From a virus: 64,000 nt of DNA. The notes beneath the pieces were generated by a model that ran no database searches, was not told the origin of the DNA, and saw only the letters and a list, made by a program, of their open reading frames with translations. The translations under genes were made by a program, and so were the position numbers. Position 1 is the first letter of the stretch; the number at the start of each line of letters is the position of its first letter. Below, in pieces: positions 13,885 through 47,638 of this stretch. The DNA lies in IMG/VR virus record IMGVR_UViG_3300047335_000043; one strand, 5' to 3'.

Positions 13885-14486
13885 CAGTAGTAGTACCAGA
13901 TCTGCCCAGGCGCAGTCGGCGTGGGAGCCGAACCGGGGTTCGCGGCGATCGTCACGCCAGGCCCTACGGCGGCGTTGGGCAGGCGCGCGTTCGCGACCGT
14001 GCCACTCGTCAGGTTCGTCGCGTTCGACGACGTGACAGCGGCTGCGGCGATTGCAGCGGCCTGCGCGACGGCGGCGACGCCTGCGGCGTAGGCGGTGTCG
14101 GCGTAACCCACATTGGTGCCGTCGGAAATCACGAGCGTCACATTGCCGGCGGTCATGATGAACGAGTTGCCGCCGGTAATCCCGAAGCTCAAGTTGTACG
14201 AGCCCGAGCACGAGTTCGACACCGACCAAATGCCGCCCACGCCTGCCGGCAGCACGTAGGTGAGATTGCCCGACAGCACGCCACCGAACTCCATGATGAG
14301 CGGTTGGTACTGCGAGAGCGTGAAGGCATACGTGCCGGCTGAGACGCCAGTCACGACGATCTTGACGACGCCACCCAAGGCGGTGTCGATGATCGCCCAG
14401 TCGGCATTCACCGGCACGTTCCAGTCGTTGTTGTAGGCGCCGGCAGCGGGCTGCTCGATGGACTTATTGGGCGTGTACGTGCTCAT
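13884..14486 (-). CDS. Tail fibre attachment / virion structural protein
   Basis: MSTYTPNKSIEQPAAG...WNVPVNADWAIID N-terminus typical of phage fibre adaptors (recall). Confidence 0.65.
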   Translation of the reverse strand: MSTYTPNKSIEQPAAGAYNNDWNVPVNADWAIIDTALGGVVKIVVTGVSAGTYAFTLSQYQPLIMEFGGVLSGNLTYVLPAGVGGIWSVSNSCSGSYNLSFGITGGNSFIMTAGNVTLVISDGTNVGYADTAYAAGVAAVAQAAAIAAAAVTSSNATNLTSGTVANARLPNAAVGPGVTIAANPGSAPTPTAPGQIWYYY

Positions 14487-16681
14487 AGATGTTCCTGGGC
14501 AATGTCGAGGGCGCGCGTGATCGCGGCGTCGGGTACGTTGAGTAGCGGCTTGGTGGTCTCATCGGTGGCGCGCTTGGCGGCCTGCCAGCGTCTCGTCAGG
14601 CGATTGACGAGCATGTCTTCGGTGACCTTGCCGCCGGAGGCGCGGGCGATCGGTGGCTGCGCGGGGTTCACGGCTCCTTCGAGGCCGGCTCCTGGCTTGA
14701 CGGCGTCGCGCGCGAATTCGAGCTTGGCGTCGCGCACTGACTGCAGCGCTTTTGCGTTCTTGGAGTCTTTCAGCTTCGAGTCGAGCATCTTCTTGCCGAG
14801 AACACCCACGGGACCAAAGTGCCCGGCGGCGGCGTCCGCGCCCACGTCCAACAGATGCGAGATCAACTGGGGGTCTTTCGGAAACACCGCGCCATGCCGC
14901 TCCAGCGCGAGCATCGTGTTGGAGCGGTTCACTGCCGTGGCTTTACCCTCCTCGTTCACGTAGCCCGCGACACGTTTCAGGCGCTGCACGTTCTCGATCG
15001 TCTCGGGATTTAAGAGCGATCCTACTTTCCCCTTGGAGTCGAGCTGTGTGACCGCCTTAAAGAACGGCGAATACTGAAAGCCAGTCTTGGCGTGTCCGAG
15101 CGCATCGACGCCAGCAGCATCGCGTAAGTGGTTCAACGTCGCTGCTTCCATCGCGGAAGAAAGCCCCTGATCGGGCACCGCTGCTTTCAGTCGCTTGATG
15201 AAGGCAGGAGCGGCGCTAACGCCGTCACCGAGCACGTAGCGATTCATGAAGTTCGCAGCGAGCGGCGACTCCTGGGTCAGGTCATGAAGACCGTCTTTGG
15301 TCTTCTCGACATTGTCTTCAATCGCCGCCTTATAAGCGGGATTTGCTTCAATCGTGTCGAACCGAGCCTTGGCCGCCGCGCGCGCGTCGTTCGCCAGGCC
15401 CTTCAAGTGCATCGCATCTTCCGTGAGCGGCATGTTCTCCAGCGTGTCGCGGATGATCCCCGCCGCCTTCTTTGTTGGCCCCTTGCCGCGCATCACCTCC
15501 GCGAGGTTGCTGCGCATGTCCTCAAAGGTTTCGAAATCGATCGGCTTGCCAGAGTTCAGCGTGTCCATGATCTCGGAGATCGTCGGGTCCGCTGCTGCCG
15601 CCTTGCTAAGGAGGCGCTTGCCAAGCTGCGACTTGATCGTATCGATGGCGGTGCCAGTGTCGATCGGCACGCTGCCGCCGTTGGCATCCGTTAGTGCCTT
15701 ATACTTGGCGCGGATATCCGTGAGAGCTTCGTTGTCACGCTGCTTGATCGCGTTGACCGCAGCCTGACCGTGATCCACGTTGTTGCGCTGTACGATGTCA
15801 GGATTGGCGCGCCGCTGGATCTCGCCAATACTTGAAGTAAGCTTCTTGTCCTGATCTTCGATCGAGGCAGTCAGGACTCCCTGCGTATCCGGGTCCGCGC
15901 GCAGGTTCTTCTCGTCCGAGATCTGCTGCGCATCCTGAGTGGCCTGCCCGCGCCGCAGACGCAGCGGTCCCTTGCCGTCGTCAGGGAGCGGGAGCTGCGC
16001 GGTGTCGAGATGGCGATCAAGCGCATCAAGATCTTCGATCTTCCCATCGTTGCTGGCCGCATGCCCCTCAATAGCCGAGCGCAGCCCAGGATCAGCCACG
16101 CTCAAGTCACGCGGTGTGGATGCGGCGCCCATGGACTGCGGCGCCGTGGAGTTCGCGAGCGCCTCCTCGGCGGTGTAGGTCTTCGCTGGTACGGGCGGCT
16201 TGAACTGATTCACCAATGAACGGGCTGGGCCTTTAAGAAGGCCGGCTGTGCCGGTGAGTGCAGCGATTGCTGTCGGCGCGGACTTAATTGCGGTCGATAC
16301 TCCGGGAGATGCGCCCCAATCGGCTGATTTGTCGGCGAGATAGTCAGCACCCTCTTGCGCGTAGTTCAGCGGGTTATACTTCGAGGTCATAGCCGACTTC
16401 AATGCAGAATCGGGTGCCTGGTAAGCCTTTGAGGTTTCGTCGTCAATCGCGTCAACGGCAGCGTTGAGCCCCTGCCAGGTGATGAGTTTGCCGATACCCC
16501 TGTAACCGCCCACGGCGCCGTGATACATGTTGCTGCCCGCTTCCTCCAGAAAGTTGCCGACGCTGTCGCCGATCTTCGGTTTCGCGAGCGCTGCTTCCGT
16601 CACTCGGTTGTACTTGTCCGGTGGCGGCAAGTCATCGAGCGGGCTGGGTGGCGCTAAGTCGTCGAGTGGATTTGCCATCAC
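14483..16681 (-). CDS. Large internal virion (ejection) protein
   Basis: 732 aa, helical and Ala-rich; last of the ejection cluster; RASGGKV motif near the C-terminus. Confidence 0.7.
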   Translation of the reverse strand: MMANPLDDLAPPSPLDDLPPPDKYNRVTEAALAKPKIGDSVGNFLEEAGSNMYHGAVGGYRGIGKLITWQGLNAAVDAIDDETSKAYQAPDSALKSAMTSKYNPLNYAQEGADYLADKSADWGASPGVSTAIKSAPTAIAALTGTAGLLKGPARSLVNQFKPPVPAKTYTAEEALANSTAPQSMGAASTPRDLSVADPGLRSAIEGHAASNDGKIEDLDALDRHLDTAQLPLPDDGKGPLRLRRGQATQDAQQISDEKNLRADPDTQGVLTASIEDQDKKLTSSIGEIQRRANPDIVQRNNVDHGQAAVNAIKQRDNEALTDIRAKYKALTDANGGSVPIDTGTAIDTIKSQLGKRLLSKAAAADPTISEIMDTLNSGKPIDFETFEDMRSNLAEVMRGKGPTKKAAGIIRDTLENMPLTEDAMHLKGLANDARAAAKARFDTIEANPAYKAAIEDNVEKTKDGLHDLTQESPLAANFMNRYVLGDGVSAAPAFIKRLKAAVPDQGLSSAMEAATLNHLRDAAGVDALGHAKTGFQYSPFFKAVTQLDSKGKVGSLLNPETIENVQRLKRVAGYVNEEGKATAVNRSNTMLALERHGAVFPKDPQLISHLLDVGADAAAGHFGPVGVLGKKMLDSKLKDSKNAKALQSVRDAKLEFARDAVKPGAGLEGAVNPAQPPIARASGGKVTEDMLVNRLTRRWQAAKRATDETTKPLLNVPDAAITRALDIAQEHL

Positions 16682-25030: not shown

Positions 25031-27156
25031 CAGATCTGGCCGTCGGGAGCGTAGCGATAACGAATGAGACCGATGCGCCAGAAACTCCCGAGATCGCTGC
25101 TCGCGACGCGGATCGAGACCAAGCGACCACGGAAGCGCGTGTAGAAGTAGTTCGTGGCCTGGGTCACGGAGTACGGGCCATACACGGTTGGCGTCTGACC
25201 GGGATAATCGACGACGTAGAAGGAGATCTGCACCGTGGCGCTCTGCGCGGCGTCGTACTGACCCCACTTCATGTCGGGCCAGATCCAGTCGATGAAACTC
25301 TTGTAGTCGCCTTCCGAGAGCGCGTAGTAGCCCGTCTGGAAGTACGGCTGCATCGCGACACCCGCCGCATCATTGGAGGTCTCGTGCTGGTAGAGCATGA
25401 GCGAACTGGGGTCGGCGCCGATCGGCGGCCCGAGCACCGACTGATCGACCCACGCGGTGCGCCCGAGGGTGCCGTAGTCCCACACCTCTAAGGTGGTATT
25501 GAACTTCACGTACGAGTCCACTTCGCCCGTGCCACTCGCCGACGGGTAGAACCACTGGATCTCATCGAAGCGCGAGTTCACAGCGACGCGGATCTTCGTG
25601 GTGTTCGGCTGCCCGATCGTGGAATCAATCGCGGTGTTCAAGTTCTGGAAGATCACGTCCCAGATCGGACACGGGATCGTCTGCACGCCGTCGCTGGAGA
25701 GCATGTAGAACTGCGAGAAGCCCATCCAGTAATAGATGCCGCGCACGGCGGCGGCGGCTTTACGCGCGATGAGGCCGCAGCCCGTGCCGATCTCGTTGAA
25801 CGAGTACACGTAAGGCGTGCCGATGTACTGCATCGACCAGACATCGATGTCGGTCCAGATGAGCGCTTGCTGCGGTCCTTGCAGACAGGACACGATTCGT
25901 GAGCCCTTCGGAATGCGATAGGAGCCCGCTTGATTGGTGACGAGCGCGATCCAGGTGTTGTAGTTGCCGACGTCGCACCAGTTGATCAAGAGCGGGTCTT
26001 GTATGCCGGTCTGCGTCGAGCCCCACGCAATGATCTGGCGCTGCGGCATCGCCACGAACACGCCGTCGTTCACGGGTGGCGCGTTGGTGATGATCGTCGC
26101 CTGCCCCGTGGTCTCGCTCCACTGATAGATCGGCTGGAACTGCGGCACGCCCGCTGCTTGATCGCGCACCGGACACGAGATCAACGTGGCACCATAGTTA
26201 TCGAGCGTCCAATCAATCGCATCGATCTCGGTTCCAGTCGTCGGCACCACCACGGAGCCCGTGCCGTAGCCGCCCTGGCCGTAGTAGCCCGAGCCATAGC
26301 CCGTGCCGCCAGGCAGCGCGCCCTGGCCGAACGAGTAGATGTAGTAGATGTTGCCGCCATTTAAGGTGCCGCTCGTGCTCGCGGTCGCGGGCGCATTTGC
26401 CAGGATCGTGAAGTGACTGGAGTCGGTGAGCGACTGCACGACGTAATTGCCGTAGAACGTGATGCCGCCGACCGTCGTCGATACGAGCACCGGGAAGGTC
26501 GTGCCGACCGTGTAGGTGTAATTCGCGAGCGTCACGGTGACCGTAGGAGAGCCCGAAATCGTCGTGAACACGGGTAGCGTCGGACTTGAGGATGTGGACG
26601 TCGCTGGCGTGAGCGTGCCTAAGATATTGCTCGCGAATACCGTGTAGGCGTTGACCCCTAAGAAGCCATCGGGGTCGCACATGTACAGGCCAAAGAGCAC
26701 CAAGCCGCCGATGCTGATCTGGGTGGCGATGTAGACCGAGTTGTACTGCGTGATGCCGGGCACTGCCGTGTCGGTGATCTGCACGCTCGCACTGCCCGAC
26801 GTCGTGCTCACCGTCGGCGTGCCGCCGCTGGAGATCCTTAGCGTGGGCGTGATGTCCTGATTGCTGCCGTTCGTGATCACGCAGAGCTGCGCGCTGCCGC
26901 TCGTCGCCGTTTGCGTGCCCCCGGCGAGATGCGCGTTCGAGTTCAAGTCCTCCCAAGCCCAAAGCGCTCGCACGGTCGCGACCATCGGGTTTCGGTAGAA
27001 CGCTTGCCAGCCGCCCAACTTCGCCACCAGGCTCAAGCCATTGGGGTCGTAGTAATAGCGGATCAGTTGCGTGCTGACGATCCCGCCGTTCTCGTTCTGC
27101 GCGGGCGTCTCGTTGCTGTTCGCGCCACCGAGGAGCTTAATCGCAGCGTGTGGCAC
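25030..27156 (-). CDS. Tail nozzle / stabilisation protein (tail tubular B-like)
   Basis: 708 aa, beta-propeller-like; WSD/WCD, WMG and WDYGTLGRTAWVD motifs; synteny. Confidence 0.75.
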   Translation of the reverse strand: MPHAAIKLLGGANSNETPAQNENGGIVSTQLIRYYYDPNGLSLVAKLGGWQAFYRNPMVATVRALWAWEDLNSNAHLAGGTQTATSGSAQLCVITNGSNQDITPTLRISSGGTPTVSTTSGSASVQITDTAVPGITQYNSVYIATQISIGGLVLFGLYMCDPDGFLGVNAYTVFASNILGTLTPATSTSSSPTLPVFTTISGSPTVTVTLANYTYTVGTTFPVLVSTTVGGITFYGNYVVQSLTDSSHFTILANAPATASTSGTLNGGNIYYIYSFGQGALPGGTGYGSGYYGQGGYGTGSVVVPTTGTEIDAIDWTLDNYGATLISCPVRDQAAGVPQFQPIYQWSETTGQATIITNAPPVNDGVFVAMPQRQIIAWGSTQTGIQDPLLINWCDVGNYNTWIALVTNQAGSYRIPKGSRIVSCLQGPQQALIWTDIDVWSMQYIGTPYVYSFNEIGTGCGLIARKAAAAVRGIYYWMGFSQFYMLSSDGVQTIPCPIWDVIFQNLNTAIDSTIGQPNTTKIRVAVNSRFDEIQWFYPSASGTGEVDSYVKFNTTLEVWDYGTLGRTAWVDQSVLGPPIGADPSSLMLYQHETSNDAAGVAMQPYFQTGYYALSEGDYKSFIDWIWPDMKWGQYDAAQSATVQISFYVVDYPGQTPTVYGPYSVTQATNYFYTRFRGRLVSIRVASSDLGSFWRIGLIRYRYAPDGQI

Positions 27157-29105: not shown

Positions 29106-29839
29106 TACGGCCCCACCACCGGGAGTTGGGTGTAACCGTAGGGGAGTCCGACGATCGCCGTCAGGATGAGCGTACCGGAGGTCAGGAGTGATTGTGCCGG
29201 GATGTTGCTGAGCGTCTGATACGTGAAGCTGTTCGCGGTCGTGACCGTCACGCTGTAGAAGCCGCACGCGCCCGCGACGTTCAAGCCCTCGATCGACACC
29301 TGCGAGTTGTTCTGCAAGCCATGCACCGCCGCGCAGATCACCGTGACGATGGTCGTGCCGGCGCCGTTGATGGCATTCACGGGCAGCGATACCGCATAGG
29401 TAGCTGTGCCGTTCCACGGCATGATCGCGTCTTGTGAGAGGCCTGCGGGCCCGCCAATGGGCGACTGCGTGAGGTTCAAGCAGTCCTCGGTCACCAGCAG
29501 CGTCGTCGGCGGGATCGGGATGCCCGTCACGGGGTCAGTGACCGGAACTGCGCTCACGGTGTGGTAGTCGGTCTCGTCCTGGGCGAAGTTCTCGACGCTC
29601 GGGAAATAGATCGGCACGGGATCGGCGGGCAGCGTGATCGCACGGAGCTGCTCCTGCGGCGTGTCGAGACAGGGCTTGCACACGAGCAGGTACTTGTTCT
29701 GGAGCTGCGCGCCGGCCCAGTCGAACTGGAACTGCAGATCAACGCGGTTGTACCAGAAGCCGCAGCGCATGCAGACCGCAAAGGCCTGCGGGTTTCGCAA
29801 CGAGGTGCGGGCGCGGCCGGATTGTGAGGCGTATGCCAT
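29105..29839 (-). CDS. Head completion / neck protein with CxxC motifs
   Basis: [10 protein letters not shown]...AVCMRCG...LVCKPCLD; GGAGG SD. Confidence 0.7.
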
Positions 29840-29867
29840 TACGCTGCCTCCGGGCACGCGCGGTTTG

Positions 29868-33590: not shown

Positions 33591-36500
33591 TAATTGAACT
33601 CCAGTTGCGAGATCGTGCCGGTCTGATTCGAGCCGTTGCCGAACATCACGTAGTTCGCACCTACGACGAGCGGCACGTTGTTGATGGTAGTCGTGCCGTT
33701 GGCGACGCTCACGGCACTAGAGACGAGCTGGTTGGCAGCGCCCACGCCGCCGACATTCAGACTCGTCGTGAAATTGGTCGAGACGCCTGCGAAGGTCGCC
33801 TGCAGGGTGTAGGTGCCTGCGGTCTCGCAGTTGATCAGGATCGGGATATAGTGGCCGTTGAAATAGCGCACCGCCGGGCCGCCACCGTAACCACCAGAAC
33901 TGAAATTGAGCGCCGTCTGCACGATCGATGCCGCCGTCGTGTTGACGTTGTTCACCGGGTTTGCGGGATTCCAGGTACAAAGCGAACTGCCCGAGATGAA
34001 GGTGACGTTACGGACTTCGCCCGTGCTGAACGTCACGGCGAGCACCTGGCTCGCATAGCCCCAGGCCTGCGCCGCGCCGCCTGCGCTCACGGCGAGCGTG
34101 GCGTTCACGGAGATGTACTGCACGGGGGCGGTCGTGAAGTAGATGTTCGCGACCGGCGGCGCGGTCGCGTTCACGTTGTCCACGAAGTTGTAGCCGCTGA
34201 CGATGGAGGCACCGCCTGGGGCGGTTACGACGTTCCGCGTCGGCGTTACGGTCGCCATGAACGATTGCAACGCTGCGAGCGTCGGCGAATTGCTGTTCGG
34301 GTTACCGCCGCCGATGAGGCCCGTGTAGTTGTTGGAGAGTTCGTCTTGCGGCGAGTTGCCGGTGATGAAGCCCGACACGCCGCCACTGAAATGCGTGATC
34401 CTGGAATAGCCGCTATTCAGGCACGCCTGGTAGTAGCTCTTGACCGGCGCGACCATGCCGGAATTGCCGAGCGCGGCACCTAAGTTCGTGACGTTATTGT
34501 ACGAGGCGCCAGTCGATGGCGAAGTGCCGTTGTACTGACCGCCGGACTCATAGGTCATCATCGGGATGCCGTAATAAAGGGCAGTCACCGCGATGTTCTC
34601 GGACGACGAGTCGAGCGCCTGCGACGGCCCGTTCACGCTGATATTCGATTCGATCGTCGCGATGGAATCGGAATTCAGCATCGGCGGATTCATGTACGGG
34701 GCGATCGCGATGTAATGCACATCGCTAGCGGGAGCGCCGTAGCTCGTTGCCATGTAAGAAAGCGCGATCGAGAAGAACGCGTAGCCGTTGCCGCTCGTCT
34801 CCCAAGCAAGGATCTGTTTCGCTTTGACGCCCCACCAGCCCGACGGAAGCACCGACTGTGCGAGCAGCGAAAAGGCGCGCATGCGATAGCCCATGTACTG
34901 CGCCTGATTGGTCTGACTTGTGCCGCTCGTGTAGCCGGCAAGCCCAGGAAGCACTTTCATCATGTAGGAGACTTGGTTGCCCTCCCACAGCTCGTTCGCG
35001 GTCTCGAAATACAGCGTGCCAGTCGAAGTCCAGGTATTCGCAAGGAGCGTGAGCACTTGCGATGAGTACGAGCCCGCCGCATAGCCCGTGCCGTCTTCGA
35101 CGATCGGCAGGTTAATGTAGAGACCAATGTTGCAGGCGTTTGCGAGACCGATGTACCAGTCGATCGGAAAGCCTTCGACGTCGTAAGAAAGCTGCGTACT
35201 CGCGTTGGCGGTGAGCGCCCCACCGCCGCTTGACCAGCTCGCCGACACGTTGCTCGTGCCGCTGCCCACGGTCACGATGCGCGAGTCGGTACCGCTCATG
35301 ATCATGCCGAAGATGCCGGCGCCCTGACTCCACGCAGAGATCGTGCCGGTGGTGGCACCAGAAGTTGGCGCGCTCGTCCAATTGATTCGCTGTACACCAC
35401 CCCAACCGCTGGTCGGCGATCCCGATTGGCGCGCCTGGCAGTTCGCAATACGGTGGCGATTGCTGCTCGTACCCTGCGCCGTGTTCTCTAGCGCATTCGA
35501 CGGCCACATGATGCGTAGGTGCCCGTACTGACTGTAGTGATTGATCGCGTCGGTGGTATATGCGCTCGCGGGTACGGAGTTCGCCGTGTAGTCGAAATCC
35601 ACTGTGGTCGCGGTATATGCGGGCAGATTGCAAAAGACCTTCGTGGCACCGCCCGTGGTGCCCGACACATTGAATCCGAATGCGGTCGCACTTGATGACA
35701 CGGTGAGCTGAAAGGTCGAATAAGCGCCGCCCGTGCCATGCACGATGTTGCTCACGGTGCAATTGACGGCGGCAATCGTTTCCGCCCCGGTCCCGACGAA
35801 GCCGCCGTACCACGTGCCAATTTGCCAGGGCTGCGGGTTACCGCCCTCGTAGAGCAGGCAACCGAAGTCCGCCGCCGGCCAGCCGTTACTTTGCACGGCG
35901 ACCATGACCTCAGAAAAGCTGCCCGACTGATACACCGTGAAGCCGCGCGATTCGCGCACGCGGTTCTTGAAGATCGGAAGTCCTTCGTAAGAGGTCTGCG
36001 CGGCGCCGCCGGCCGCGAAGTTGATGCCGATCGGATTGCTGCTCGGGGCCGCGGGAAGGTTGATCGGACGAACGGGGTTGACCGGATACGTCGCTTGCGC
36101 GGACAAAATGCCCGCATGAATGTACGTGCCCCAACTATTCTCAAACCGCTGGTCATCCGATGACCAGTAGCGATGGGTGGCCCCCGTATTCAAGAATGCG
36201 GTGGATGGCACGGGCGACGTGCCGTTCATCGCCTGCGCGATCTGCACGACGCCGGCACTCGTGAACGGGAAATCAATCGCAGGCGTCGTCGGGGTCGTGT
36301 AGAAGTAGCTCTGGCCGTTGCTGGGCTGCCCCGTCTTGCCACCGTAGTCGGGGGTCTGCACTTGCCCGAAAATCGGCATATACCCTTTTAGGTTGGTGCC
36401 GGACGGGGAAGTCGGTAGCGGCGTCGTGGCGCTGCCGACGCCGATCGCGGGGTTGATCCCCATAAAAGACTGAATGGAGTTCTGCGCGTTTGAATAAAGA

Positions 36501-37981
36501 TAATTCGCGTAATTGCGGCTCCAGTAGGAGCCAACCGTATCCGAGGTTCCAAGCGCGATGCCTTGGATCGCGGAGAGCCCCGGAATGCTGAGTGACGTCG
36601 TTGCCGCGAGCCAACCGTTCGTTGTATTGAACGCATTCACCCCGTCGGCGGTCCCGCTTGCGTCCGTGACACCAAAGGTCACGTTCGCACCCACCATCGT
36701 GTGCGGGAACGCCGCAGCCGCAGCGGTGGCCCAGGCGAGATAATTCGTCCAGTAGTGGGTCAGCGTGCAGGCATTCGATCCCGACCCGTTAACGGGATAA
36801 GGCCCCTGGTTGAAGCTGTAGGAAACCTCGTTGCCGTTCCAAACACATTCGACGAGTGGGTGCTCGTCGAGCGTGTACATGTTGCCGTCGCTATACGGCA
36901 GCTCCACAGTCGCGAGCCACTGCCAGAACTTGATCCAGCATGCATTGACGGCCGGGTCCCAAAATCCCGATGCACAGACCGCATACCCAGCCGCTGTTCC
37001 GTTGTAGCCCGAGTACCCATATCCATAGCCATTGGTACCCCCGTTGCCCACTTGCGCGGCCAGCGTGTAGACGGTGCTATTGACGGTAAGCGAGCCACCA
37101 CAAGTGGCGATGTACGCCGGCACGCAATTGGGCGTGCGACTCGGTAACAGATTAGTCGCCACATTGGAGTTGATGTCGCTGACCACATAGACGCCAAAAC
37201 GCAACCCTGGATTCGCGCTCTGCAATAAGTTGTAGGCGTTTTGAATCGGCGTCGCGTTATAGACGCCCTGCGCGGTCTCAATGGATGACCAAGCGAGCCT
37301 GAAGACAGCCCCAATGATGCCGCTCGCGGTCGATGCGCCGGAATCGAGCAGCGGTATTTCATTCGACCAACTGCCGGAACTCGTGTTGTAGGTATTGACG
37401 GAGATCAGATAGTCGCCGGGGTGGAACTTGTAACCCGTGGCAACCGGCGTGTTGATCGTGTACGCCGCACTGCCGACGGCGCTTTGGATGTAGCCCGTCG
37501 CCACCGCGATCGCTTTCACAGTCTCACTGACGCTCACGGCGATCGGACTCACGTAAAGCGTTGCCGACGTCGTGGGCGTCGTGCCGTTGGTCGTGTAGTA
37601 GATCGACGCGCCCGACGTCGAGGACGTGATCATGACGCTTTGTGAACTCGTGTACGTGCCGCCGGGGGGCGCGAATTGCGGCGTAGCGGCTACGGGCTCG
37701 ATCACGTAGCTCATGCTCGCGACACCGCTCACTGAGTAGCCCGGTGTCGCGCCGATCGCGTTCACCGTGGTGCTGACGCTTACGATGATCGGGCCGGTGT
37801 AGACGCTGCTCGCGGTGGTTGGCGTCGCGCCGTTGGTTGTGTAATAGATCGTAGAACTGGGGGTCGAGCACGTGATCGTCACGGTCTGCGCGGTCGAGTA
37901 GATGCCGCTCGCAGGCGAGATAGCGGGCGTCGCCGTGACCGGCGTTGAGCCACTCGTAACCGTGGCGACGAGGTAAGGCAT
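33590..37981 (-). CDS. Giant appendage protein: 2x CHB_HEX_C/Fn3-like domains plus two glycoside-hydrolase-like domains
   Basis: ATPxxxPxxGxYxxxQxVxI...TIYYTTNG repeats; GNE motif in the first domain; ETANELW and TYESGG in the second (clan GH-A-like). Confidence 0.75.
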   Translation of the reverse strand: MPYLVATVTSGSTPVTATPAISPASGIYSTAQTVTITCSTPSSTIYYTTNGATPTTASSVYTGPIIVSVSTTVNAIGATPGYSVSGVASMSYVIEPVAATPQFAPPGGTYTSSQSVMITSSTSGASIYYTTNGTTPTTSATLYVSPIAVSVSETVKAIAVATGYIQSAVGSAAYTINTPVATGYKFHPGDYLISVNTYNTSSGSWSNEIPLLDSGASTASGIIGAVFRLAWSSIETAQGVYNATPIQNAYNLLQSANPGLRFGVYVVSDINSNVATNLLPSRTPNCVPAYIATCGGSLTVNSTVYTLAAQVGNGGTNGYGYGYSGYNGTAAGYAVCASGFWDPAVNACWIKFWQWLATVELPYSDGNMYTLDEHPLVECVWNGNEVSYSFNQGPYPVNGSGSNACTLTHYWTNYLAWATAAAAAFPHTMVGANVTFGVTDASGTADGVNAFNTTNGWLAATTSLSIPGLSAIQGIALGTSDTVGSYWSRNYANYLYSNAQNSIQSFMGINPAIGVGSATTPLPTSPSGTNLKGYMPIFGQVQTPDYGGKTGQPSNGQSYFYTTPTTPAIDFPFTSAGVVQIAQAMNGTSPVPSTAFLNTGATHRYWSSDDQRFENSWGTYIHAGILSAQATYPVNPVRPINLPAAPSSNPIGINFAAGGAAQTSYEGLPIFKNRVRESRGFTVYQSGSFSEVMVAVQSNGWPAADFGCLLYEGGNPQPWQIGTWYGGFVGTGAETIAAVNCTVSNIVHGTGGAYSTFQLTVSSSATAFGFNVSGTTGGATKVFCNLPAYTATTVDFDYTANSVPASAYTTDAINHYSQYGHLRIMWPSNALENTAQGTSSNRHRIANCQARQSGSPTSGWGGVQRINWTSAPTSGATTGTISAWSQGAGIFGMIMSGTDSRIVTVGSGTSNVSASWSSGGGALTANASTQLSYDVEGFPIDWYIGLANACNIGLYINLPIVEDGTGYAAGSYSSQVLTLLANTWTSTGTLYFETANELWEGNQVSYMMKVLPGLAGYTSGTSQTNQAQYMGYRMRAFSLLAQSVLPSGWWGVKAKQILAWETSGNGYAFFSIALSYMATSYGAPASDVHYIAIAPYMNPPMLNSDSIATIESNISVNGPSQALDSSSENIAVTALYYGIPMMTYESGGQYNGTSPSTGASYNNVTNLGAALGNSGMVAPVKSYYQACLNSGYSRITHFSGGVSGFITGNSPQDELSNNYTGLIGGGNPNSNSPTLAALQSFMATVTPTRNVVTAPGGASIVSGYNFVDNVNATAPPVANIYFTTAPVQYISVNATLAVSAGGAAQAWGYASQVLAVTFSTGEVRNVTFISGSSLCTWNPANPVNNVNTTAASIVQTALNFSSGGYGGGPAVRYFNGHYIPILINCETAGTYTLQATFAGVSTNFTTSLNVGGVGAANQLVSSAVSVANGTTTINNVPLVVGANYVMFGNGSNQTGTISQLEFN

Positions 37982-38619: not shown

Positions 38620-39740
<1,121 letters not shown>

Positions 39741-41195: not shown

Positions 41196-41510
41196 TTAAT
41201 CCAGGCTCTCGGACATTAGGCTGCGACCCTTCGGCACCTTGCCGCTGTGCGCGGTCGTGAACGGATTCGCCTCCGCCCCCGTGCGACCGCCGGCCTTGCG
41301 CGGCTTGCGATCGGGACGACCCATCGTCTTGCCGCCCTCTGCCTTGCCGATCAAGACGCCGCCGGCTGCTTTCTTGGCGCGACCGCCCTTCTTCAGTTCC
41401 TCGGCCTCGTCCTCGATGTCATTCGGCACCGTGCGCGACTTCGGCTTGTCCTTGATTTCGTCTTCGGCTTCGTTGACGCCGCCCGTGCCCTTACCTTTGC
41501 GACCCTTCAT
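41196..41510 (-). CDS. Small Lys-rich virion-module protein with four GG motifs
   Basis: KKGGRA, KAAGGV, AEGGKT and KAGGRT; start reassigned to 41510. Confidence 0.75.
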   Translation of the reverse strand: MKGRKGKGTGGVNEAEDEIKDKPKSRTVPNDIEDEAEELKKGGRAKKAAGGVLIGKAEGGKTMGRPDRKPRKAGGRTGAEANPFTTAHSGKVPKGRSLMSESLD

Positions 41511-41520: not shown

Positions 41521-42105
41521 CTACGAAGCCAAGTTGATGGACGGGATGTACTCGACCGTGATGTTCGCCACACCCGATCCCGTGTTGGTTGACTGGATGA
41601 TGATCTGCACGTCCTGCGTGCCGACGTTGTCCCAGTTGCCGATCTGCGTGGCACCCGTACCCGGCGTCACGGTGATCTGCCCCAGTGCGCCCGAGGTCAC
41701 GACGGCATTCGCTGCGGTGAGAGCGGTGGCTGAGTTGTTGGTGCCAATGCCGAACGTAGTCGCCGCGCCCGTGAAAGCGGTCGTGACCATGATCGTGATG
41801 TGCAGGATCTGCGACTGCGCCGGGATCACGATCGCGCACGCGTACTGACCGGCGGTGCCCGTGTTGGTCGCTTGCGTGAACGTGTCGGTGCTCGCGACGA
41901 CCCCATACCCTGTATTGCACGTGCCCTGCGTCTCGCCGATGCCCGCGAGGTTGTTCGTGCCATCGCTCGTCAGCACGTTGCCCCAAATGACGGGACCCGT
42001 GAAGAACGTGCCGGGGAACGGCGGGTTACCGACGGTCTGCGTGAGCTGACCGCCGACGATGTCGGGGTACGCGTTGTTCGTGCCGGGGTTGTACGTCGTA
42101 GCCAT
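41521..42105 (-). CDS. Capsid-associated structural protein
   Basis: AAGGAG SD; immediately follows the MCP. Confidence 0.7.
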   Translation of the reverse strand: MATTYNPGTNNAYPDIVGGQLTQTVGNPPFPGTFFTGPVIWGNVLTSDGTNNLAGIGETQGTCNTGYGVVASTDTFTQATNTGTAGQYACAIVIPAQSQILHITIMVTTAFTGAATTFGIGTNNSATALTAANAVVTSGALGQITVTPGTGATQIGNWDNVGTQDVQIIIQSTNTGSGVANITVEYIPSINLAS

Positions 42106-42114: not shown

Positions 42115-43029
42115 TTACGACGTCGGGAACGCGGCATAGAGTGCGCGCCAGTTGAAGTAGTTGAAGCTGTACCGCTGGTAGCCCTTGACGAGCAGGTTGT
42201 CAGTGACGAAGTCCACCTGCATGTCGGTCTCGAAAGGGATGCGGCTCATGTACGCGAGGCCCGCGATGTTCGTGAGCAGGTACCAGGCGTAGGCTGACGT
42301 CAAGAAGTCCATGACCATGTAGCCTTCGGAGAGGCCACCTGCGGTCGAGAGGATCGCATTCACGTCGTTGTCGGCCGTGCCGGGGCGCAGCTCCGTCTTC
42401 GTGAGACGAATACCGGTGGGTTCCAACTGCGGCGGCAGAATGAGCTTGCGGCCACGCGCGAAGAGCTTCAGGCCCGCCTGGTCGCGGAAGTTGTAGCGGA
42501 TGTTGATCATCGCCGAGAGCAACGTCGCTTCGTTCAAATCGACCTGGGTCGTGAACGTGTTCGCGATCGTCTGGCCGTCGATCGGGTGCGCCGTCGAGCA
42601 AAGCGCGACACCGTCGCCGTTGACGCCCGCGTTGTAGGTCGTCGCGGTGTTCAAGACGTTCGCCGCGTACAGTTCCATCGTTTGATGGAAGGACTCCATG
42701 AGCCCCAAATTCGACGGGTGGAACTGCGTCTTGTAGAGGTTGTCGTCGATCATCTTGCGCGTGAGCGCATAGCCCAACGAGATTTCGTTGTGCTCTTGCA
42801 CGTACGTGTAGCGCTGGCCGGCGTTGTTATCGAACTGCGTCTGACCGCCGTCAGTCTTCAACTGAGCGAGCGGCAGGTAGCGCATTTCGATCGTGCGCTC
42901 TAGAGCAAGTTTGGAATCAAACTTGGTGAAAACCTTGTCATACTGGCTGGGAATTTGCTCATATTTTCCCGTCAAGCCGCGCAGGCCCGGCAGAAGGAGA
43001 TCTTTGATTGAGGCAAGATTAATAGCCAT
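42115..43029 (-). CDS. Major capsid protein
   Basis: MAINLASIKDLLLPGL...DGVALCSTAHP...LILPPQL...DFVTDNLLVKGYQRYSF; HK97-like, synteny. Confidence 0.88.
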   Translation of the reverse strand: MAINLASIKDLLLPGLRGLTGKYEQIPSQYDKVFTKFDSKLALERTIEMRYLPLAQLKTDGGQTQFDNNAGQRYTYVQEHNEISLGYALTRKMIDDNLYKTQFHPSNLGLMESFHQTMELYAANVLNTATTYNAGVNGDGVALCSTAHPIDGQTIANTFTTQVDLNEATLLSAMINIRYNFRDQAGLKLFARGRKLILPPQLEPTGIRLTKTELRPGTADNDVNAILSTAGGLSEGYMVMDFLTSAYAWYLLTNIAGLAYMSRIPFETDMQVDFVTDNLLVKGYQRYSFNYFNWRALYAAFPTS

Positions 43030-43549
43030 GAGTGACTCCTACAGACTCTGCATTCGCGGTGATGTGTGCCCAAGAGCGGCCAGTGCGGATACGCCAGACA
43101 TGCGTTTCGCGAATGCCGTAGTTCACAGCGGCGTCCTTCACGGGCGTCGCCGAAAACTTGATTTCTCTGGCCTGCTCGGCGGTCAGCTTCGACGTACCGA
43201 TCTGCGCGCCGCGCACGTCGCGACGACCACGAGCTTCGCGATCCGCCATGTTCTGTTTCACGGTTCCGACGCTTAGATGAGCAGGATTGATGCACGCAGG
43301 GTTGTCGCATGCGTGCAGAACGTGAAGCCCCGACGGAATCGCGCCGACGAACGCTTCATAGCTGACGCGATGCGCTTTGGTGTACCTGTTGGCGCGCGAG
43401 ATCATCCCGTAGCCGCCGGTATCCTTAGTGCCGATCCAAAGCCAGCAACCGCTCTCAGTGAGACGGCACTTATGAAACAGCCGCGCTTTCAGTAGATCGC
43501 TGTCGCTGACAGTCTCGAAAGGAACGTATTTGTCGATGGGTACGAACAT
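43019..43549 (-). CDS. Free-standing HNH homing endonuclease
   Basis: CWLWIG...GYG...AHRVSY...HVLHACDNPACINPAHL...N. Confidence 0.92.
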   Translation of the reverse strand: MFVPIDKYVPFETVSDSDLLKARLFHKCRLTESGCWLWIGTKDTGGYGMISRANRYTKAHRVSYEAFVGAIPSGLHVLHACDNPACINPAHLSVGTVKQNMADREARGRRDVRGAQIGTSKLTAEQAREIKFSATPVKDAAVNYGIRETHVWRIRTGRSWAHITANAESVGVTHGY

Positions 43550-44166
43550 CAGACGACCGCCGTCGTGACCTTCGTCTCGACGTTGTTGAAGGAGACGATC
43601 GCGTAGTTGTACGCACCGCTGGATGTGCCATTGGCACCGGGAGGATTCAGGTACAAGCCCTGCAGTCGGAACGGGTACGCCGCCGTGGTGACCGGCGTGT
43701 GCAACAGGTACGCGCCGCTCTTGCCGTTGGCTGCCGTGCCGGTGCCGATCGCGAAGTCGAAGTTGGCGCCGACCTGGGCCTGCGTGACGCCGGTCGAATC
43801 GCTCTGCACAAGGAACTGGGCGTTGGGATCGTTGATGATCCAGGCCGAGATCGTGGACTGGTTGCCTGAGCTGACCGGCGAGCCGCCAGGCCAGTAGTTC
43901 GACCAGACGGTGCGGCCGACGACGGTGGAAAGATATTTGCAGCCGATGAAAATGCCGGCCATGGTGACGGTGGAGCCTCCCGCAGAGCCTGCGGATTGCG
44001 CGATCGTGCCGTCAGAGGTGGAAACGCGGTTGACCGGGTCACCGTAGTAGATGACGGTCGCGTTGTAGTCGATGCCGCCGTTGCCCTGCTCGTACTGTTC
44101 GTACGTGGGCGAGGAGCCGAGGCCTGCCTGCTGAGAGAAACCGAACGGCGCGTTAGTGTTCGCCAT
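43549..44166 (-). CDS. Capsid decoration / minor capsid protein
   Basis: MANTNAPFGF...IYYGDPV...DPNAQFLVQ; upstream of the MCP. Confidence 0.75.
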   Translation of the reverse strand: MANTNAPFGFSQQAGLGSSPTYEQYEQGNGGIDYNATVIYYGDPVNRVSTSDGTIAQSAGSAGGSTVTMAGIFIGCKYLSTVVGRTVWSNYWPGGSPVSSGNQSTISAWIINDPNAQFLVQSDSTGVTQAQVGANFDFAIGTGTAANGKSGAYLLHTPVTTAAYPFRLQGLYLNPPGANGTSSGAYNYAIVSFNNVETKVTTAVV

Positions 44167-44424: not shown

Positions 44425-44561
44425 AATTTCATCGTGTCGATGAGCTGATTGGCGAGCGCGATCGACTGCATCACGTCAGGGGTTTTGCCAGACGCAATGC
44501 TCGCCGCCGTGAAGAGCGCGGCGAGCGCGAGGCGCAGCTTCACGACATCGTCGGCGTCCAT
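44421..44561 (-). CDS. Small hypothetical protein (46 aa)
   Basis: TGATG-coupled; MDADDVVKLRLAL... Confidence 0.5.
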   Translation of the reverse strand: MDADDVVKLRLALAALFTAASIASGKTPDVMQSIALANQLIDTMKL

Positions 44562-45148
44562 CAGTCTGGGATGCGCAAGCTTTCCGCTTCGCGCGTGGTG
44601 CGGATATTGTTGATGGGCTTGCCCTTGTTGTCGGTCGCGAACGGCGAGTTGGGGCCGGCCGGCGAATGCATGATCTGCTGTTCTTTGTCGCGCACCTGAT
44701 TGCGGGCTTTGAGCTTCTCGCGGTCGTTCGCCTCGTCGGTGATCTCCTTCGGGCGCTCCATGAGCATCTGGCCGTCGCGCTCGATGCACGTGCCGGTCCA
44801 GCCCTTCGGCATCAGTTCCGGGTGACGCGAGGCGGGCACCGGTTCCCAGCCGCCGCGCGCGGTCGCGATCTCATTCGCGGCGTTCTTGGCGCCCAGGACC
44901 GTCATGACCTTCCACTCGTACGCCCAGCCATCGGGAATGATGCGCGGGTCGATCGCGAACTGATCGGTGCCGTCGTTGAAGTCACCGCGATGTTCGCGCA
45001 GCTCGGCGGCGCGGCGCGACGCGCGCGAGCGCGGATCGTCCTCGTCAACGGGCGCGGCTTCCACGACCGGGGACTGCGGCAGTGGCGCGTGCAGACCTGC
45101 GCGGCGGCGCGGTTCGCCGATCAAAGGGGTTTCGGTTTCGGTAGCCAT
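44561..45148 (-). CDS. Head morphogenesis-associated protein
   Basis: IPDGWAYEWK...GWEPVPASRHPE...GQMLMERPKE. Confidence 0.7.
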   Translation of the reverse strand: MATETETPLIGEPRRRAGLHAPLPQSPVVEAAPVDEDDPRSRASRRAAELREHRGDFNDGTDQFAIDPRIIPDGWAYEWKVMTVLGAKNAANEIATARGGWEPVPASRHPELMPKGWTGTCIERDGQMLMERPKEITDEANDREKLKARNQVRDKEQQIMHSPAGPNSPFATDNKGKPINNIRTTREAESLRIPD

Positions 45149-45149
45149 A

Positions 45150-46058
45150 TCAATTCATTCCTTCGCGCTTGATCGCGATCTTCTGACGAGCGTATTCCTC
45201 AGGCTTCATGTCCATGAGCTTCGCGATCTCGACTTCGTCGGCGGTCAACGTGACGATGTTGGCGCGCTGGCCGCCGCCGTTGCCGCTGCGAGTGACCGGA
45301 GCCGAGGCCGGCGGGGCTGAACGGGTCGATTTCGGTCGAGCGGCATCGGACAGCGTGTCGTCCTGGAGCGCAGGATCGGCGCGACCGACGCCTAAGCGGT
45401 TCTCGACGTAGGCGAAGTACTCGGGCGTGTCGGCTTTGAGGCCCTCATCGACCGCGTCCTCGTGAGCGCGCACCATCTTGCGAGTCTTGGCGGGATCGCG
45501 CGCATATTCTGGATGCTGACGCACCCACTGCGCGCTCTGCGGCGACAAATCCTTGACGAAGTGCTCGACCACGTCGGGTTGCACACTCGGAGAGGGCTTC
45601 GGCGCCTTTTCGAGCGCCGTTTTGCTCCTTTCCAGCTCGACGAGCTTCGCCTGATTCGCCACCATCTGCCGTTGGATCTTCGCGGCGCCCGCAAAGTCCT
45701 GGTCAGAGAGCGCGGCGGCGTAATTCGCCTCCAAAGTGTCGTTTTGCGTCGTGAATTGCGTGATCGCATTCTTCACAAGGTCCAAATGCGTGCCTTGCAC
45801 CTCGGTTCGCGCTTGAACTTCGGCGAGCGAGGCCGCTTGCGCGCGTCGTTCAGCATCTTCACGGGCGGCATTCGCGGCGGCGAGGTCGTCTTGGAGCTTT
45901 TTGAGCCCTTCGTCGGGTGTAACGACCTTACTTTTCGGCTGCTTGACCTCAACGACGGGTAAATCGTCGTTTTTTTCCGTCTTTTTCGGCTTCGCTTCGG
46001 CCGCAAGTGCGTCAGCTTCGTCCAAATCGATCTGAATATCGTCGGAAGTTGTGCTCAT
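45150..46058 (-). CDS. Capsid scaffolding protein
   Basis: Acidic, coiled coil; C-terminal VTLTADEVEIAKLMDMKPEEYA. Confidence 0.75.
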   Translation of the reverse strand: MSTTSDDIQIDLDEADALAAEAKPKKTEKNDDLPVVEVKQPKSKVVTPDEGLKKLQDDLAAANAAREDAERRAQAASLAEVQARTEVQGTHLDLVKNAITQFTTQNDTLEANYAAALSDQDFAGAAKIQRQMVANQAKLVELERSKTALEKAPKPSPSVQPDVVEHFVKDLSPQSAQWVRQHPEYARDPAKTRKMVRAHEDAVDEGLKADTPEYFAYVENRLGVGRADPALQDDTLSDAARPKSTRSAPPASAPVTRSGNGGGQRANIVTLTADEVEIAKLMDMKPEEYARQKIAIKREGMN

Positions 46059-46060
46059 GA

Positions 46061-46513
46061 TCACCAGACCATGGCTGGGTGTGCGATTTTGGCGCGAATC
46101 ATGTCGTCCCAGATCATTCGGCACGGCACGTAGTCGGCCATGTCGAGCACCGAGGGGCGCATGTTGATGTCGAGTGCCCACGCGTCCGACGGCCGAATCA
46201 CAATCCAGTCGTGCAACTCGATCGGAATTCCGTAGGTGATGCCCTTGGTGGCGTGTTTGCGCACGAATTGACACGCAGAACCGATCTTGAGTACCAAATG
46301 CGCCTTCGCTTGGTACAGATCCTCCTTCAAATTCTGGTGCGGCAGCACGATGCCGCCCGGCGTCATCTCTTCGCGCCGGTAGATCGCGACGAGCAGCTCG
46401 TTGTTGGCGATCTCATAGCCGGAAAGATCGCCGACCTTGTCGATGATGGCTTTCCGCAGGCGCTGCGATTCCGCTTCGACCTCGCTGCTGATAGGTTTCA
46501 AGCGTGCGTTCAT
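46061..46513 (-). CDS. GroES/Cpn10-like protein
   Basis: ELLV...TPGGIVLP mobile loop...VLKIG...CRMIWDDMI. Confidence 0.7.
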   Translation of the reverse strand: MNARLKPISSEVEAESQRLRKAIIDKVGDLSGYEIANNELLVAIYRREEMTPGGIVLPHQNLKEDLYQAKAHLVLKIGSACQFVRKHATKGITYGIPIELHDWIVIRPSDAWALDINMRPSVLDMADYVPCRMIWDDMIRAKIAHPAMVW

Positions 46514-46517
46514 TCAG

Positions 46518-46709
46518 TTACCTGTTGTTGATCGTCGTGTTGATGTCATCGAGCGCGTCGGCGACGCGCTTCAACGCAAAGATCTGGCCGACGATGTGTT
46601 TGTAGTCCGCAATGTCCTGCACAGTGCCCGGCGTTTCCAGATTGTTCCGCAGTCGAATCAATTCCTCAGAGAGCCACTTGCGCAACTCCGTTTCAAACGC
46701 GGTATTCAA
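46518..46709 (-). CDS. Small helical head-module protein
   Basis: DIADYKHIVGQIFALK. Confidence 0.65.
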   Translation of the reverse strand: MNTAFETELRKWLSEELIRLRNNLETPGTVQDIADYKHIVGQIFALKRVADALDDINTTINNR

Positions 46710-47638
46710 CCGTAGGCCGCGATCTTTTCGAGGCGACCCAAGCCGCCGCCACCACCGGACTCAATCGGATACGTGCGACCGCCACGCTTACGCATCTGCG
46801 GCGGCGGCTGCATCGGCGCGGGCGCTGCAGCCGGCGGCGGTGGCGGGCTCTGGTGCATGCCCACGGGGCCTGCGCCTGGAGGCGGCCCACCCATCGGCGG
46901 TCCCATCGGCGGTCCCATCGGCGGCTTCGCGGGCGGCTGCGCGATGATGATGTTCACGTTCATGCCGCCCTTCTTCGTGCGGCCACCGGCTTTGCGAGGC
47001 ACGCGATCGCCCGTGGGGCGCGTGCCTCCCAAGGTGGCGCCGCCGGCTGCTTTCGCGACCTTGCCGCCGCTGCATTTGGCGCAAGTGCATTTCTCGTTGT
47101 GAACTTCGGACTTGACCTTGTTGAGTTCGCTCTTGATGAGCTTCTTGTCCTCGGCCTTATCGGCGTGAACCTTGCCGCCGGCCTTGCGCATCATCGGACG
47201 CGGACCCACTTGCGGGCGAATGCCGATGGGCGCGGCGCCTGTGCGCGCGGGCATCACGGGGCGCTCAGCAGGGCGACCCATCATCGGGCCGCCGACCATC
47301 TTGGCAACGCGTCCACCCTTCTTCAGGCCACCGTCTTGCTTGTCGCCGTCGCGCAGCTCGTTGGCCTTTTTCTGATCGACGTTGAAGTAATCATCGACGA
47401 TGCCGCCGCCCTTCGCGCGTGGTTTGCGATCAGCGCGCTGCATGGCTTTCTCGCCCATGACCTTGCCGCCTTTCTTGAACGCTCGGCGCGAGAGCACGCG
47501 CATGCCGGTCTGCACGTCGTCCTTCTCGGCGGGCGGGTTCTTCCAACCCGATGCATCGACGACGCCGACTTTGGCGCTCGTCAGTCGCGAAACTTTTTCC
47601 TTCGCGCGGGCGCGAGATTGTTCAGACATCGTGCTCAT
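46706..47638 (-). CDS. Lys/Pro-rich head-module protein with about ten GG motifs
   Basis: FKKGG, RAKGG, LKKGG, MVGG, RKAGG, CSGG, KAAGG, RKAGG, TKKGG, RKRGG; PPMG repeats. Confidence 0.8.
   Translation of the reverse strand: MSTMSEQSRARAKEKVSRLTSAKVGVVDASGWKNPPAEKDDVQTGMRVLSRRAFKKGGKVMGEKAMQRADRKPRAKGGGIVDDYFNVDQKKANELRDGDKQDGGLKKGGRVAKMVGGPMMGRPAERPVMPARTGAAPIGIRPQVGPRPMMRKAGGKVHADKAEDKKLIKSELNKVKSEVHNEKCTCAKCSGGKVAKAAGGATLGGTRPTGDRVPRKAGGRTKKGGMNVNIIIAQPPAKPPMGPPMGPPMGGPPPGAGPVGMHQSPPPPPAAAPAPMQPPPQMRKRGGRTYPIESGGGGGLGRLEKIAAYG

Follow-up and report, generated by a model that had tools for sequence, protein, structure and literature searches.

What is the function of a short glycine-glycine motif that recurs in five proteins of a phage structural module? 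The question is raised by IMG/VR record IMGVR_UViG_3300047335_000043, of which one stretch of 64,000 nucleotides (nt; hereafter the window) was analyzed. A first-pass annotation, made from the sequence letters, had marked about 27 copies of a motif x-[AKD]-x-G-G in five open reading frames (ORFs) between 14483 and 47638, and had taken them for protease sites or internal-capsid targeting tags in polyprotein-like cargo. The motif was found to be enriched and conserved in these proteins and widely distributed among related phages, and no recognisable protease accompanied it. We favor, tentatively and at somewhat less than an even chance, the reading that the motifs are uncleaved short linear elements, acting as hinges, docking points and DNA contacts in internal virion proteins of a T7/SU10-like phage.

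Enrichment and conservation of the motif

All five motif-bearing ORFs are on the minus strand. A strict search for x-[AKD]-x-G-G gave 9 matches in 46706-47638, 4 in 41196-41510, 4 in 21534-24683, 10 in 16678-20988 and 3 in 14483-16681. The five carriers named earlier stood, and the count rose from about 27 to 30; a single copy (RASGGKV) had been assigned to 14483-16681, where the strict count is three but RASGGKV alone is conserved.

The 30 motifs were compared with within-protein, composition-preserving shuffles, which gave 10.1 +/- 3.0 motifs (highest count 23 in 5000 shuffles; pooled p < 2e-4). At P4, the fourth residue before a putative cut after GG, A, K or D occurred at 30 of 58 GG pairs in the five proteins vs. 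15 of 115 in the other window ORFs (Fisher 1e-7), and other Gly-rich proteins of the window (12968-13684, 38620-39378, 41521-42105 and 43549-44166) had no motif excess. Individually, the excess was significant for the proteins of 310 amino acids (aa; p < 0.002), 1436 aa (p = 0.004) and 104 aa (p = 0.01). The 1049-aa and 732-aa proteins were not significant alone, yet homologues retain their motifs. The same families were enriched 2-6-fold in five other genomes, namely four complete relatives and the metagenomic record MW202675.1, with the motif count at expectation in the ~80 other proteins per genome.

GG columns were invariant or nearly so in homologue alignments, with variable flanks. Every synonymous combination of Gly codons was used at the GG pairs, and no DNA tandem repeat was found beneath the motifs; selection therefore acts on the protein level and not on a DNA feature. 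Two forms were distinguished: a basic form, [KR]-[KA]-x-GG-[KR]-[VAT], and a paired inter-domain form, GG-R/L-h-(x)-G/R-Y-x-D-GG. Searches for look-alikes in the window proteins gave no Pfam RHS_repeat or KGG match at E <= 0.1, and the AT-hook core GRP is not present in the motifs. Full-text literature searches for motif peptide strings and for GG cleavage in phage heads returned nothing relevant, and the motif, which is real and conserved, appears not to have been described before.

An artefact of Gly-rich coding sequence with a high guanine-cytosine (GC) content is refuted by these tests and was judged extremely improbable. A loose motif of this kind has a prior probability of ~25% at any GG, and two of the five proteins are not significant individually; set against this are the pooled shuffle and Fisher results, the lack of enrichment in other Gly-rich proteins, the same pattern in six genomes, the invariant GG columns, conservation of the motif in relatives of GC 33%, and a control pattern with 0 matches (see below). 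The recurrence proposed by the first-pass annotation was thus borne out, and its excess in virion-module over other ORFs is not a matter of Gly-rich background.

Basic proteins of the head module

The 310-aa protein (46706-47638, minus strand) is encoded directly downstream of the portal gene, is basic (net charge +35) and Gly/Pro-rich, and contains about 10 motifs of the basic form, for example FKKGGKV (47459-47479), RKAGGKV (47168-47188), RKAGGRT (46976-46996) and RKRGGRT (46772-46792). It also has a CxCxxC motif, a tract rich in Pro and a conserved tail at the C-terminus. The protein has >2000 metagenome homologues and matched no Pfam or PHROG family. Across 27 homologues (49-70% identity), the GG at residues 57/58, 103/104, 108/109, 218/219 and 286/287 was invariant and the other pairs were mostly >=90% conserved, with spacers differing in sequence and length. 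The motif context in the family is [RK] at -3 and [K/A] at -2, followed after GG by [RK] and then [A/V/T]; the median net charge is +30, with an isoelectric point of 10.7.

A second basic protein, of 104 aa (41196-41510, minus strand; net charge +8), carries the motifs LKKGGRA, KAAGGVL, KAEGGKT and RKAGGRT and is a paralogue of the middle part of the 310-aa protein (BLASTP 1e-6). The five carriers are therefore not all unrelated, and their earlier description as otherwise unrelated sequences fails for this protein. A ~105-aa paralogue follows the capsid gene in 18 related loci.

An AlphaFold2 (AF2) model of the 310-aa protein, run with the alignment, had a mean predicted local distance difference test (pLDDT) score of 51, with 186 of 310 residues below 50 and three helices only; every motif fell in low-confidence coil. 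Both the 310-aa protein and its 104-aa paralogue are predicted to be intrinsically disordered and strongly basic. It had been suggested that the Lys-rich pieces could condense DNA; of this, the strong charge was confirmed (+35, +8 and the family median), and contact with DNA is plausible because of it.

In the pelagiphage HTVC027P, a distant cultured relative, the position that the 310-aa gene has after the portal is taken by ~10 short and very basic ORFs (HTVC027P 28689-31460; K+R 20-33%), which bear KKGG-type motifs. One product, gp47, gave a weak match to the central part of the 310-aa family profile (E = 7e-4 against a tiny database). Gene fission or fusion may relate these small ORFs to the single 310-aa gene.

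Paired motifs in the 1436-aa ejection protein

The large ejection protein (1436 aa; 16678-21039, minus strand; phrog_4287/6121, PF13884) starts with an ejection domain (phrog_4287), which is followed by an internal Peptidase_S74 domain, the four paired GG modules and a lengthy C-terminal region; >225 homologues have this architecture. The four modules have the form A-[KR]-R-GG-h-h-x-R-[RK]-G-Y-D-[DA]-GG, with the GG pairs at a fixed spacing of 8-10 residues around a conserved Tyr. Module 1, FYAGGLARAAYADGG (19846-19890, minus strand; first GG 98% conserved), is at the end of the S74 domain and adjoins an optional segment (aa 386-490), which is closed by module 2, LAGGGRIRKDSGGG (19468-19509, minus strand; GG columns 85-95%). 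Modules 3, AKRGGLMRANYDTGG (18793-18837, minus strand; 98-100%), and 4, VARGGLIRRGYDDGG (18550-18594, minus strand; 95-100%), follow. Over 41 homologues the GG columns of the modules were thus 85-100% conserved. The one exception was module 1, whose second GG reached ~38% where the alignment is poor; identity in the flanks was 0.17-0.69.

The modules are placed at transitions between conserved blocks and indel-rich stretches, and the optional segment (115 aa), present in ~28% of homologues, lies between modules 1 and 2. The AF2 model of the module region was of low confidence (mean pLDDT 53.9) and placed a helix that ends at the first GG, followed by coil; the helix of module 3 ends at its first GG and that of module 4 just before the GG.

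A stand-alone 150-aa SLT lytic transglycosylase is encoded at 11622-12074 and is homologous to aa 605-715 of the MW202675.1 ejection protein, where it forms a fused domain; in a further relative, L085, the third ejection protein has an SLT-like motif at its N-terminus. Since it is found both alone and fused, the SLT domain moves between free and fused states.

The first canonical start codon of the 1436-aa ORF is a GTG at 20988. At 21037-21039 the equivalent codon is ATC, preceded by AAGGAAG, and a non-canonical ATC start is likely there, because the N-terminus (M)GGKTS is conserved in homologues: (M/V/L)GGK[TS][AS] was present in most of 120, with MGG in 48 of the 120 and VGG or LGG in many more. 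The sequence G-G-K-T-S presumably fits the GxxxS/T pattern of N-acylated animal-virus penetration proteins.

A 161-aa GNAT-like protein (21049-21534, minus strand; phrog_1249 acetyltransferase, E = 2e-4) is encoded directly upstream of the ejection gene, at the position of T7 gp13, and so it is in relatives; it belongs to the context and is not a motif carrier. The Lys/Gly motifs, or the (M)GGK[TS] N-terminus, might accordingly be sites of acetylation or acylation by this neighbor, for which the gene adjacency and the conserved N-terminus speak. This was considered very unlikely: the GNAT assignment is weak, with no Pfam match, T7 gp13 at the same position is known only as an assembly factor, and a GNAT-like enzyme has no link to the internal motifs of the head-module proteins.

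The Peptidase_S74 domain, an intramolecular chaperone with self-cleaving activity, was matched at aa 295-343 (19960-20106, minus strand; PF13884, E = 6e-8) with 33.3 bits vs. a gathering cut-off of 22, and SDKRLK, a Ser-x4-Lys context, is present. Here the domain is internal with >1000 residues downstream, whereas it is C-terminal in proteins of the endosialidase/tail-fibre type. Its predicted self-cleavage would explain one possible cut and not the GG motifs.

Carrier protein and third ejection protein

The 1049-aa protein (21534-24683, minus strand; PF17338, GP88), here called the carrier, was resolved by homologue alignment. A 149-209-aa protein of relatives corresponds to its conserved N-block (about 24309-24578) together with its C-block (21537-21731), and ~870 aa, comprising GP88 and a second domain, are inserted between the two blocks. 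The junctions bear MADGGKV (24318-24338), FYAGGGSV (22704-22727) and KADGGAA (21711-21731), then VAAGGEY (21675-21695). Insertions occur at one fixed point, between ...PYGMAxGG and ...xGGxxSGVPIVAAGGEYV: in the window the insert is GP88 with another domain, three relatives have NUDIX there, and one further relative has a Gly-rich domain. All these insertions have a GG motif on both sides, and the minimal 149-aa carriers retain the motifs.

The two blocks are alike, with a common pattern P-I-x-V-x-x-G-x-Y-V-h-P-x-x-V...G-x-G-N/D, which suggests a duplicated small beta unit. Invariant residues of the carrier (numbered as in relative L083) are H8, H13, D21, H22, D37, E45, E102, D117, D119, H122 and D126; so many invariant His, Asp and Glu residues would not usually be expected where the role is structural alone.

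In the 732-aa third ejection protein (14483-16681, minus strand), a conserved C-terminal module (14486-14644, reaching to the stop) opens with RASGGKV (14624-14644). The block was found in 4 further relatives, each with different N-terminal parts, and is the sole part common to the family. With the optional segment of the ejection protein and the carrier inserts all bracketed by motifs, the earlier statement that the motifs sit at segment boundaries was upheld.

Distribution among related phages

A back-translated strict core of the paired form, GGR[LIVM]GYxDGG, was found in 107 IMG/VR contigs, vs. 0 for a reversed-codon control. Eighty of the 107 matches were retrieved; all were in frame, in ORFs of 132-2112 aa. 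By BLAST these ORFs separate into at least 14 unlinked families, made up of large internal or 'polyvalent' proteins. Representative proteins carry GH108, Phage_lysozyme2, InPase, ART-PolyVal and LPD23 domains, and in one relative the ART domain has KASGG on either side. The nozzle, carrier, GNAT or portal was shared with the window at 67 of the 80 loci, over a GC range of 33-71%.

Polyvalent proteins are large, virion-delivered proteins in which disparate enzymatic domains are strung together (Iyer, Burroughs, Anand, de Souza, Aravind 2017; PMC5512222). The module-bearing relatives resemble them in containing InPase, ART-PolyVal with lysozyme, LPD23 and NUDIX domains, and the window may resemble them too, through GP88 (PF17338) and a second, unassigned domain within its 1049-aa carrier; unlike them, the window proteins are built on conserved ejection-protein scaffolds. 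In the polyvalent survey the words 'linker' and 'glycine' each occur 0 times, and no such motif is described (PMC5512222).

The variety of this cargo bears on a simpler account, in which the motifs are passive joints: flexible linkers (a helix cap and a turn) that tolerate insertion and serve as cargo-shuffling recombination joints, with no partner and no cleavage. The predicted coil at helix ends, the adjoining indel-rich alignment regions, the SLT domain that is free in the window and fused in MW202675.1, and the exchange of cargo among relatives at one fixed insertion point would all be expected of such joints. They do not account for an invariant GG, fixed spacing, conserved Tyr/Asp and basic residues maintained over GC 33-71% and at least 14 unrelated families, for the control count of 0 vs. 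107, or for ~10 motif positions held in register by the 310-aa family with its >2000 homologues. As the Gly codons vary, recombination sites at the DNA level are unlikely. Passive joints were therefore regarded as a doubtful explanation.

Search for a maturation protease

Pfam and PHROG scans covered nearly all window ORFs, and the self-cleaving S74 domain and a RadC-JAB protein (59680-60198) were the only protease families found. Among five complete relatives, no match was obtained for S78 (PF04586), S49 (PF01343) or C39 (PF03412), with positive controls in each case. Neither S77 (PF03420) nor adenain C5 (PF00770) was matched in the five relatives, and these two absences are uninformative because the control genomes matched neither. 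C48 (PF02902) was absent from the five complete relatives, with no clan CE Pfam match among the window ORFs, and HExxH did not occur in the called ORFs of the window or of four relatives. The claim that no standard prohead protease is present was thus confirmed for the head genes of the window and for the relatives (S78, S49).

Two candidates were rejected. The RadC-JAB protein could be a GG protease, but RadC (PF04002) is absent from all five complete relatives, which keep the motifs, as is Prok-JAB (PF14464). The RadC-like JAB (PF04002, E = 2e-40) adjoins a VapE-like primase/helicase (60736-62808) in the replication module. The 195-aa head protein at 44561-45148 had no Pfam or PHROG match, no named Atlas neighbor and no catalytic-type invariant pattern; in the conserved 195-aa and 205-aa head proteins neither a Ser/His nor a Cys/His pattern was found. 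The 205-aa protein (43549-44166) is cement- or decoration-like, as a weak lead.

Processing systems known elsewhere were compared. Adenovirus pVII and pX/mu, cut by adenain, and the pS273R sites of African swine fever virus (ASFV) likewise involve basic, DNA-associated internal proteins with several xGG-x sites. The first-pass annotation had drawn this analogy. The window differs in that no C48 match was obtained in its relatives, P4 is not hydrophobic (those systems use (M/L/I)-x-G-G), and the phage is a tailed one with HK97-fold head genes and a scaffold of its own. In T4 the capsid-targeting sequences, and in phiKZ and SPN3US the propeptides, are signals that send internal or ejection proteins into the prohead and are removed by the prohead protease; these signals are N-terminal, are cut at LxE or S/A/G-x-E, and need an S77- or S80-type protease. 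The motifs here are instead internal, repeated and GG-based, and no prohead protease was found (S78, S49 searches). Double-glycine leaders exported by C39 peptidases are N-terminal and end in GG, unlike these internal, repeated motifs. The zincin metallopeptidase (MPTase) proposed for polyvalent systems has no counterpart here (no HExxH), save a weak DUF6782 match in one distant locus.

These results bear on a processing code in which the chain would be cut after GG by a host enzyme, an unrecognised phage fold or an enzyme acting after ejection. Processing may chop the 310-aa protein into basic peptides and free cargo domains from ejection and polyvalent proteins, and the His/Asp-rich conserved blocks of the carrier or the 195-aa head protein at 44561-45148 may be the enzyme. 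Consistent with it, optional and inserted domains are always motif-bracketed, as is the ART-PolyVal domain of a relative by KASGG; the carrier is rich in invariant His and Asp; ~10 small basic ORFs replace the 310-aa gene in HTVC027P, as if the pieces function separately; and the precursors of adenovirus VII and mu are, as is generally known, cut at xGG-x sites. The module proteins also include the polyvalent domains InPase, ART-PolyVal and LPD23, and processing has been proposed for that class (PMC5512222).

Against processing, the families searched with informative result (S78, S49, C48, C39, JAB and RadC) are missing from five complete relatives, HExxH is missing too, and the window scans yielded S74 and a non-conserved RadC only; JAB proteins of the RadC type are thought to be without the groove for a ubiquitin tail (PMC5512222). 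P4 is R or K in 55% of the sites of the 310-aa family and A, K, D or R in the other proteins, not M, L or I. Conservation reaches far into the P' side and across the pair; the conservation on both sides of GG, the fixed spacing and the Tyr are more than a P4-P1 protease site requires. Some motifs are 2-3 residues from a terminus, where cutting would be pointless: MW202675.1 has HARGGVAK-COOH, three residues from the C-terminus, HTVC027P has FKNGGKK-COOH, and proteins of the ejection family begin with (M)GGK[TS]. At such ends a tag or a hinge is a better fit than a cleavage site. The motifs persist in minimal 149-aa carriers, which have nothing to release, and T7 proteins with like motifs are uncleaved (PMC11784390). 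On these grounds the view of the motifs as protease sites was not sustained and is held to be unlikely.

An equally improbable variant would combine the paired and basic forms into one lineage-wide podophage code, a capsid-interior tag that is also cut or acted on by an unrecognised enzyme, for which the universally conserved, His/Asp-rich carrier or a host protease may be candidates. If true, the code would release cargo enzymes and DNA-condensing basic peptides from polyprotein-like precursors; it would be the phage counterpart of GG-directed maturation in adenovirus and ASFV, and a general rule for building polyvalent proteins.

Comparison with T7 and proposed function

The favored reading, uncleaved hinges and docking elements, draws on T7. 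T7 structures at 3 Å show gp6.7 and gp7.3 intact in the virion and disordered outside their docked segments (Zheng et al. 2024; PMC11784390). In gp7.3 the docked segment is residues 84-98, which begin directly after GG83 and sit on the nozzle, where K84/K85 contact the DNA end; in gp6.7 loop 34-50, which opens with FGG, is bound in the gp15 ring, and loop 2-15 is placed against the portal barrel (PMC11784390). The T7 motifs, as read from V01146, are VEFGGSS and SAFGGKK-COOH in gp6.7 and KARAGGKK and SSGGGINI in gp7.3.

The 310-aa and 104-aa proteins resemble gp6.7 and gp7.3 in being small or disordered and basic, in their GG-basic motifs, and in a gene beside that of the portal; the resemblance is functional only. 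Small basic genes beside the portal, together with the order of the ejection genes, mirror T7 genes 6.7/7.3/8 and 12-16, and the head module, with a separate scaffold and a 304-aa capsid protein, is like those of the protease-free assembly of T7 and P22. The window protein is 3-4 times longer than gp6.7/gp7.3, with ~10 motifs; gp6.7 and gp7.3 bridge the portal, gp14/gp15 and nozzle and are uncleaved. The T7 ejection proteins are without paired modules, save a stretch LRGGAGGMGY at the gp15 N-terminus. This N-terminus (aa 14-28), LSRLRGGAGGMGY, loosely resembles the paired module LARGGVAGRRGY, which may be coincidence.

By this proposal, the 310-aa and 104-aa proteins would take the role of T7 gp6.7/gp7.3 inside the virion. 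Each GG would be a flexible hinge beside K/R residues and short docking loops, and the loops would touch packaged DNA (or the DNA end) and glue together the symmetry-mismatched parts of portal, core and nozzle. The paired modules of the three ejection proteins would be conserved inter-domain hinges or docking points, so that multidomain cargo proteins can be arranged about the portal axis and afterwards pass along the tail channel without being cut. That every cargo domain has a module on each side would follow, because hinges permit this packing and threading.

Several points weigh against it. In hhalign comparisons the 310-aa family gave probabilities of 0.3% with gp7.3 and 0.07% with gp6.7, that is, no homology, and Pfam-A, including the T7 gp6.7 and gp7.3 families, had no match for the 310-aa or 104-aa protein. 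As there is no sequence homology to T7 proteins, the relation is one of analogy (composition, motif and gene position) and not of membership. AF2 confidence is low, which leaves the structural statements weak. In tblastn searches of isolate phages the module region had no match, and the 310-aa protein matched the metagenomic MW202675.1 only. The bracketing of inserted cargo domains by motifs is without exception, which looks like a design for release by cleavage, and proteolytic processing has been proposed for polyvalent proteins, module carriers among them (PMC5512222). With these points counted, hinges and docking elements were still ranked first, passive joints next and protease sites after them, the GNAT link being minor.

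Genomic context

The minus strand from ~12.6 to 52.7 kb of the window is the structural module of a short-tailed phage. It comprises the large terminase (50451-52076), a portal of the SU10_portal family (47709-50027) that directly precedes the 310-aa gene, a GroES-like co-chaperonin with a GGIVLP loop (46061-46513), a coiled-coil scaffold assigned by composition (about 45150-46040, within ORF 45150-46274), the 304-aa major capsid protein (42115-43029; phrog_371), SU10-type adaptors, a 708-aa nozzle-like protein (25030-27156) and the three large internal or ejection proteins (14483-24683), all on the minus strand. In order, the genes encode the nozzle, a small protein, the carrier, the GNAT-like (gp13-like) protein and the large ejection proteins. 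The co-chaperonin is a core head-module gene and the capsid protein a core family, each in 6 of 6 genomes, and the position of the capsid gene puts the 310-aa and 104-aa genes within the head module. The portal ORF was called from a GTG at 50231, which gives it a 68-residue Arg-rich extension that relatives lack; translation probably begins at the ATG at 50027 (MPPGIQVE...). An integrase (732-2003) and regulators show that the phage is temperate.

The nearest GenBank record is the metagenomic MW202675.1 (67% portal identity). The cultured relatives are distant (29-32% portal identity): the pelagiphages HTVC027P and HTVC023P, Caulobacter phage RW and roseophage CRP-901. In RW, CRP-901, Pag-Yong1, HTVC027P and DSL-LC04 there was no match to the 310-aa family profile and no overall motif enrichment; of these distant isolates, HTVC027P and DSL-LC04 alone had traces of the motif. 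When the PDB was searched by sequence and by profile with the 310-aa family, capsid protein, portal and carrier, the NUDIX insert alone was matched.

Further observations concern neighboring genes. The GroES annotation at 46061-46513 has a counterpart in HTVC027P, RW, DSL-LC04 and Pag-Yong1. A homing-type HNH endonuclease (PF13392) is encoded at 43019-43549, where it is inserted between the genes of the cement-like 205-aa protein and the major capsid protein, and the ejection modules of relatives L083 and L084 are likewise interrupted by HNH or NUMOD genes. Collagen-like Gly-x-y tandem repeats (periods 9, 18, 33 and 66 nt) occur at 28800-28950 and 38900-39270 in tail-appendage genes. A GT2-TPR glycosyltransferase (30575-31633) is encoded nearby, as is a 1463-aa protein that bears CHB_HEX_C/Fn3_assoc repeats (33590-37981).

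Implications

Short-tailed phages must pack large ejection proteins, often loaded with anti-host enzymes, into the capsid and later pass them down a narrow tail. A unit of 12-16 residues is common to at least 14 otherwise unrelated families of such proteins and to a disordered basic head-protein family of >2000 members. It offers a concrete, mutable handle for cleavage, docking or DNA contact, and it predicts points for the insertion or exchange of domains in internal proteins, of use in engineering phage-delivered cargo. Were the motifs a cleavage or targeting code, they would explain how polyvalent proteins are processed; were they docking hinges, as favored here, the principle of T7 gp6.7/gp7.3 would be extended to a large, environmentally abundant phage lineage.

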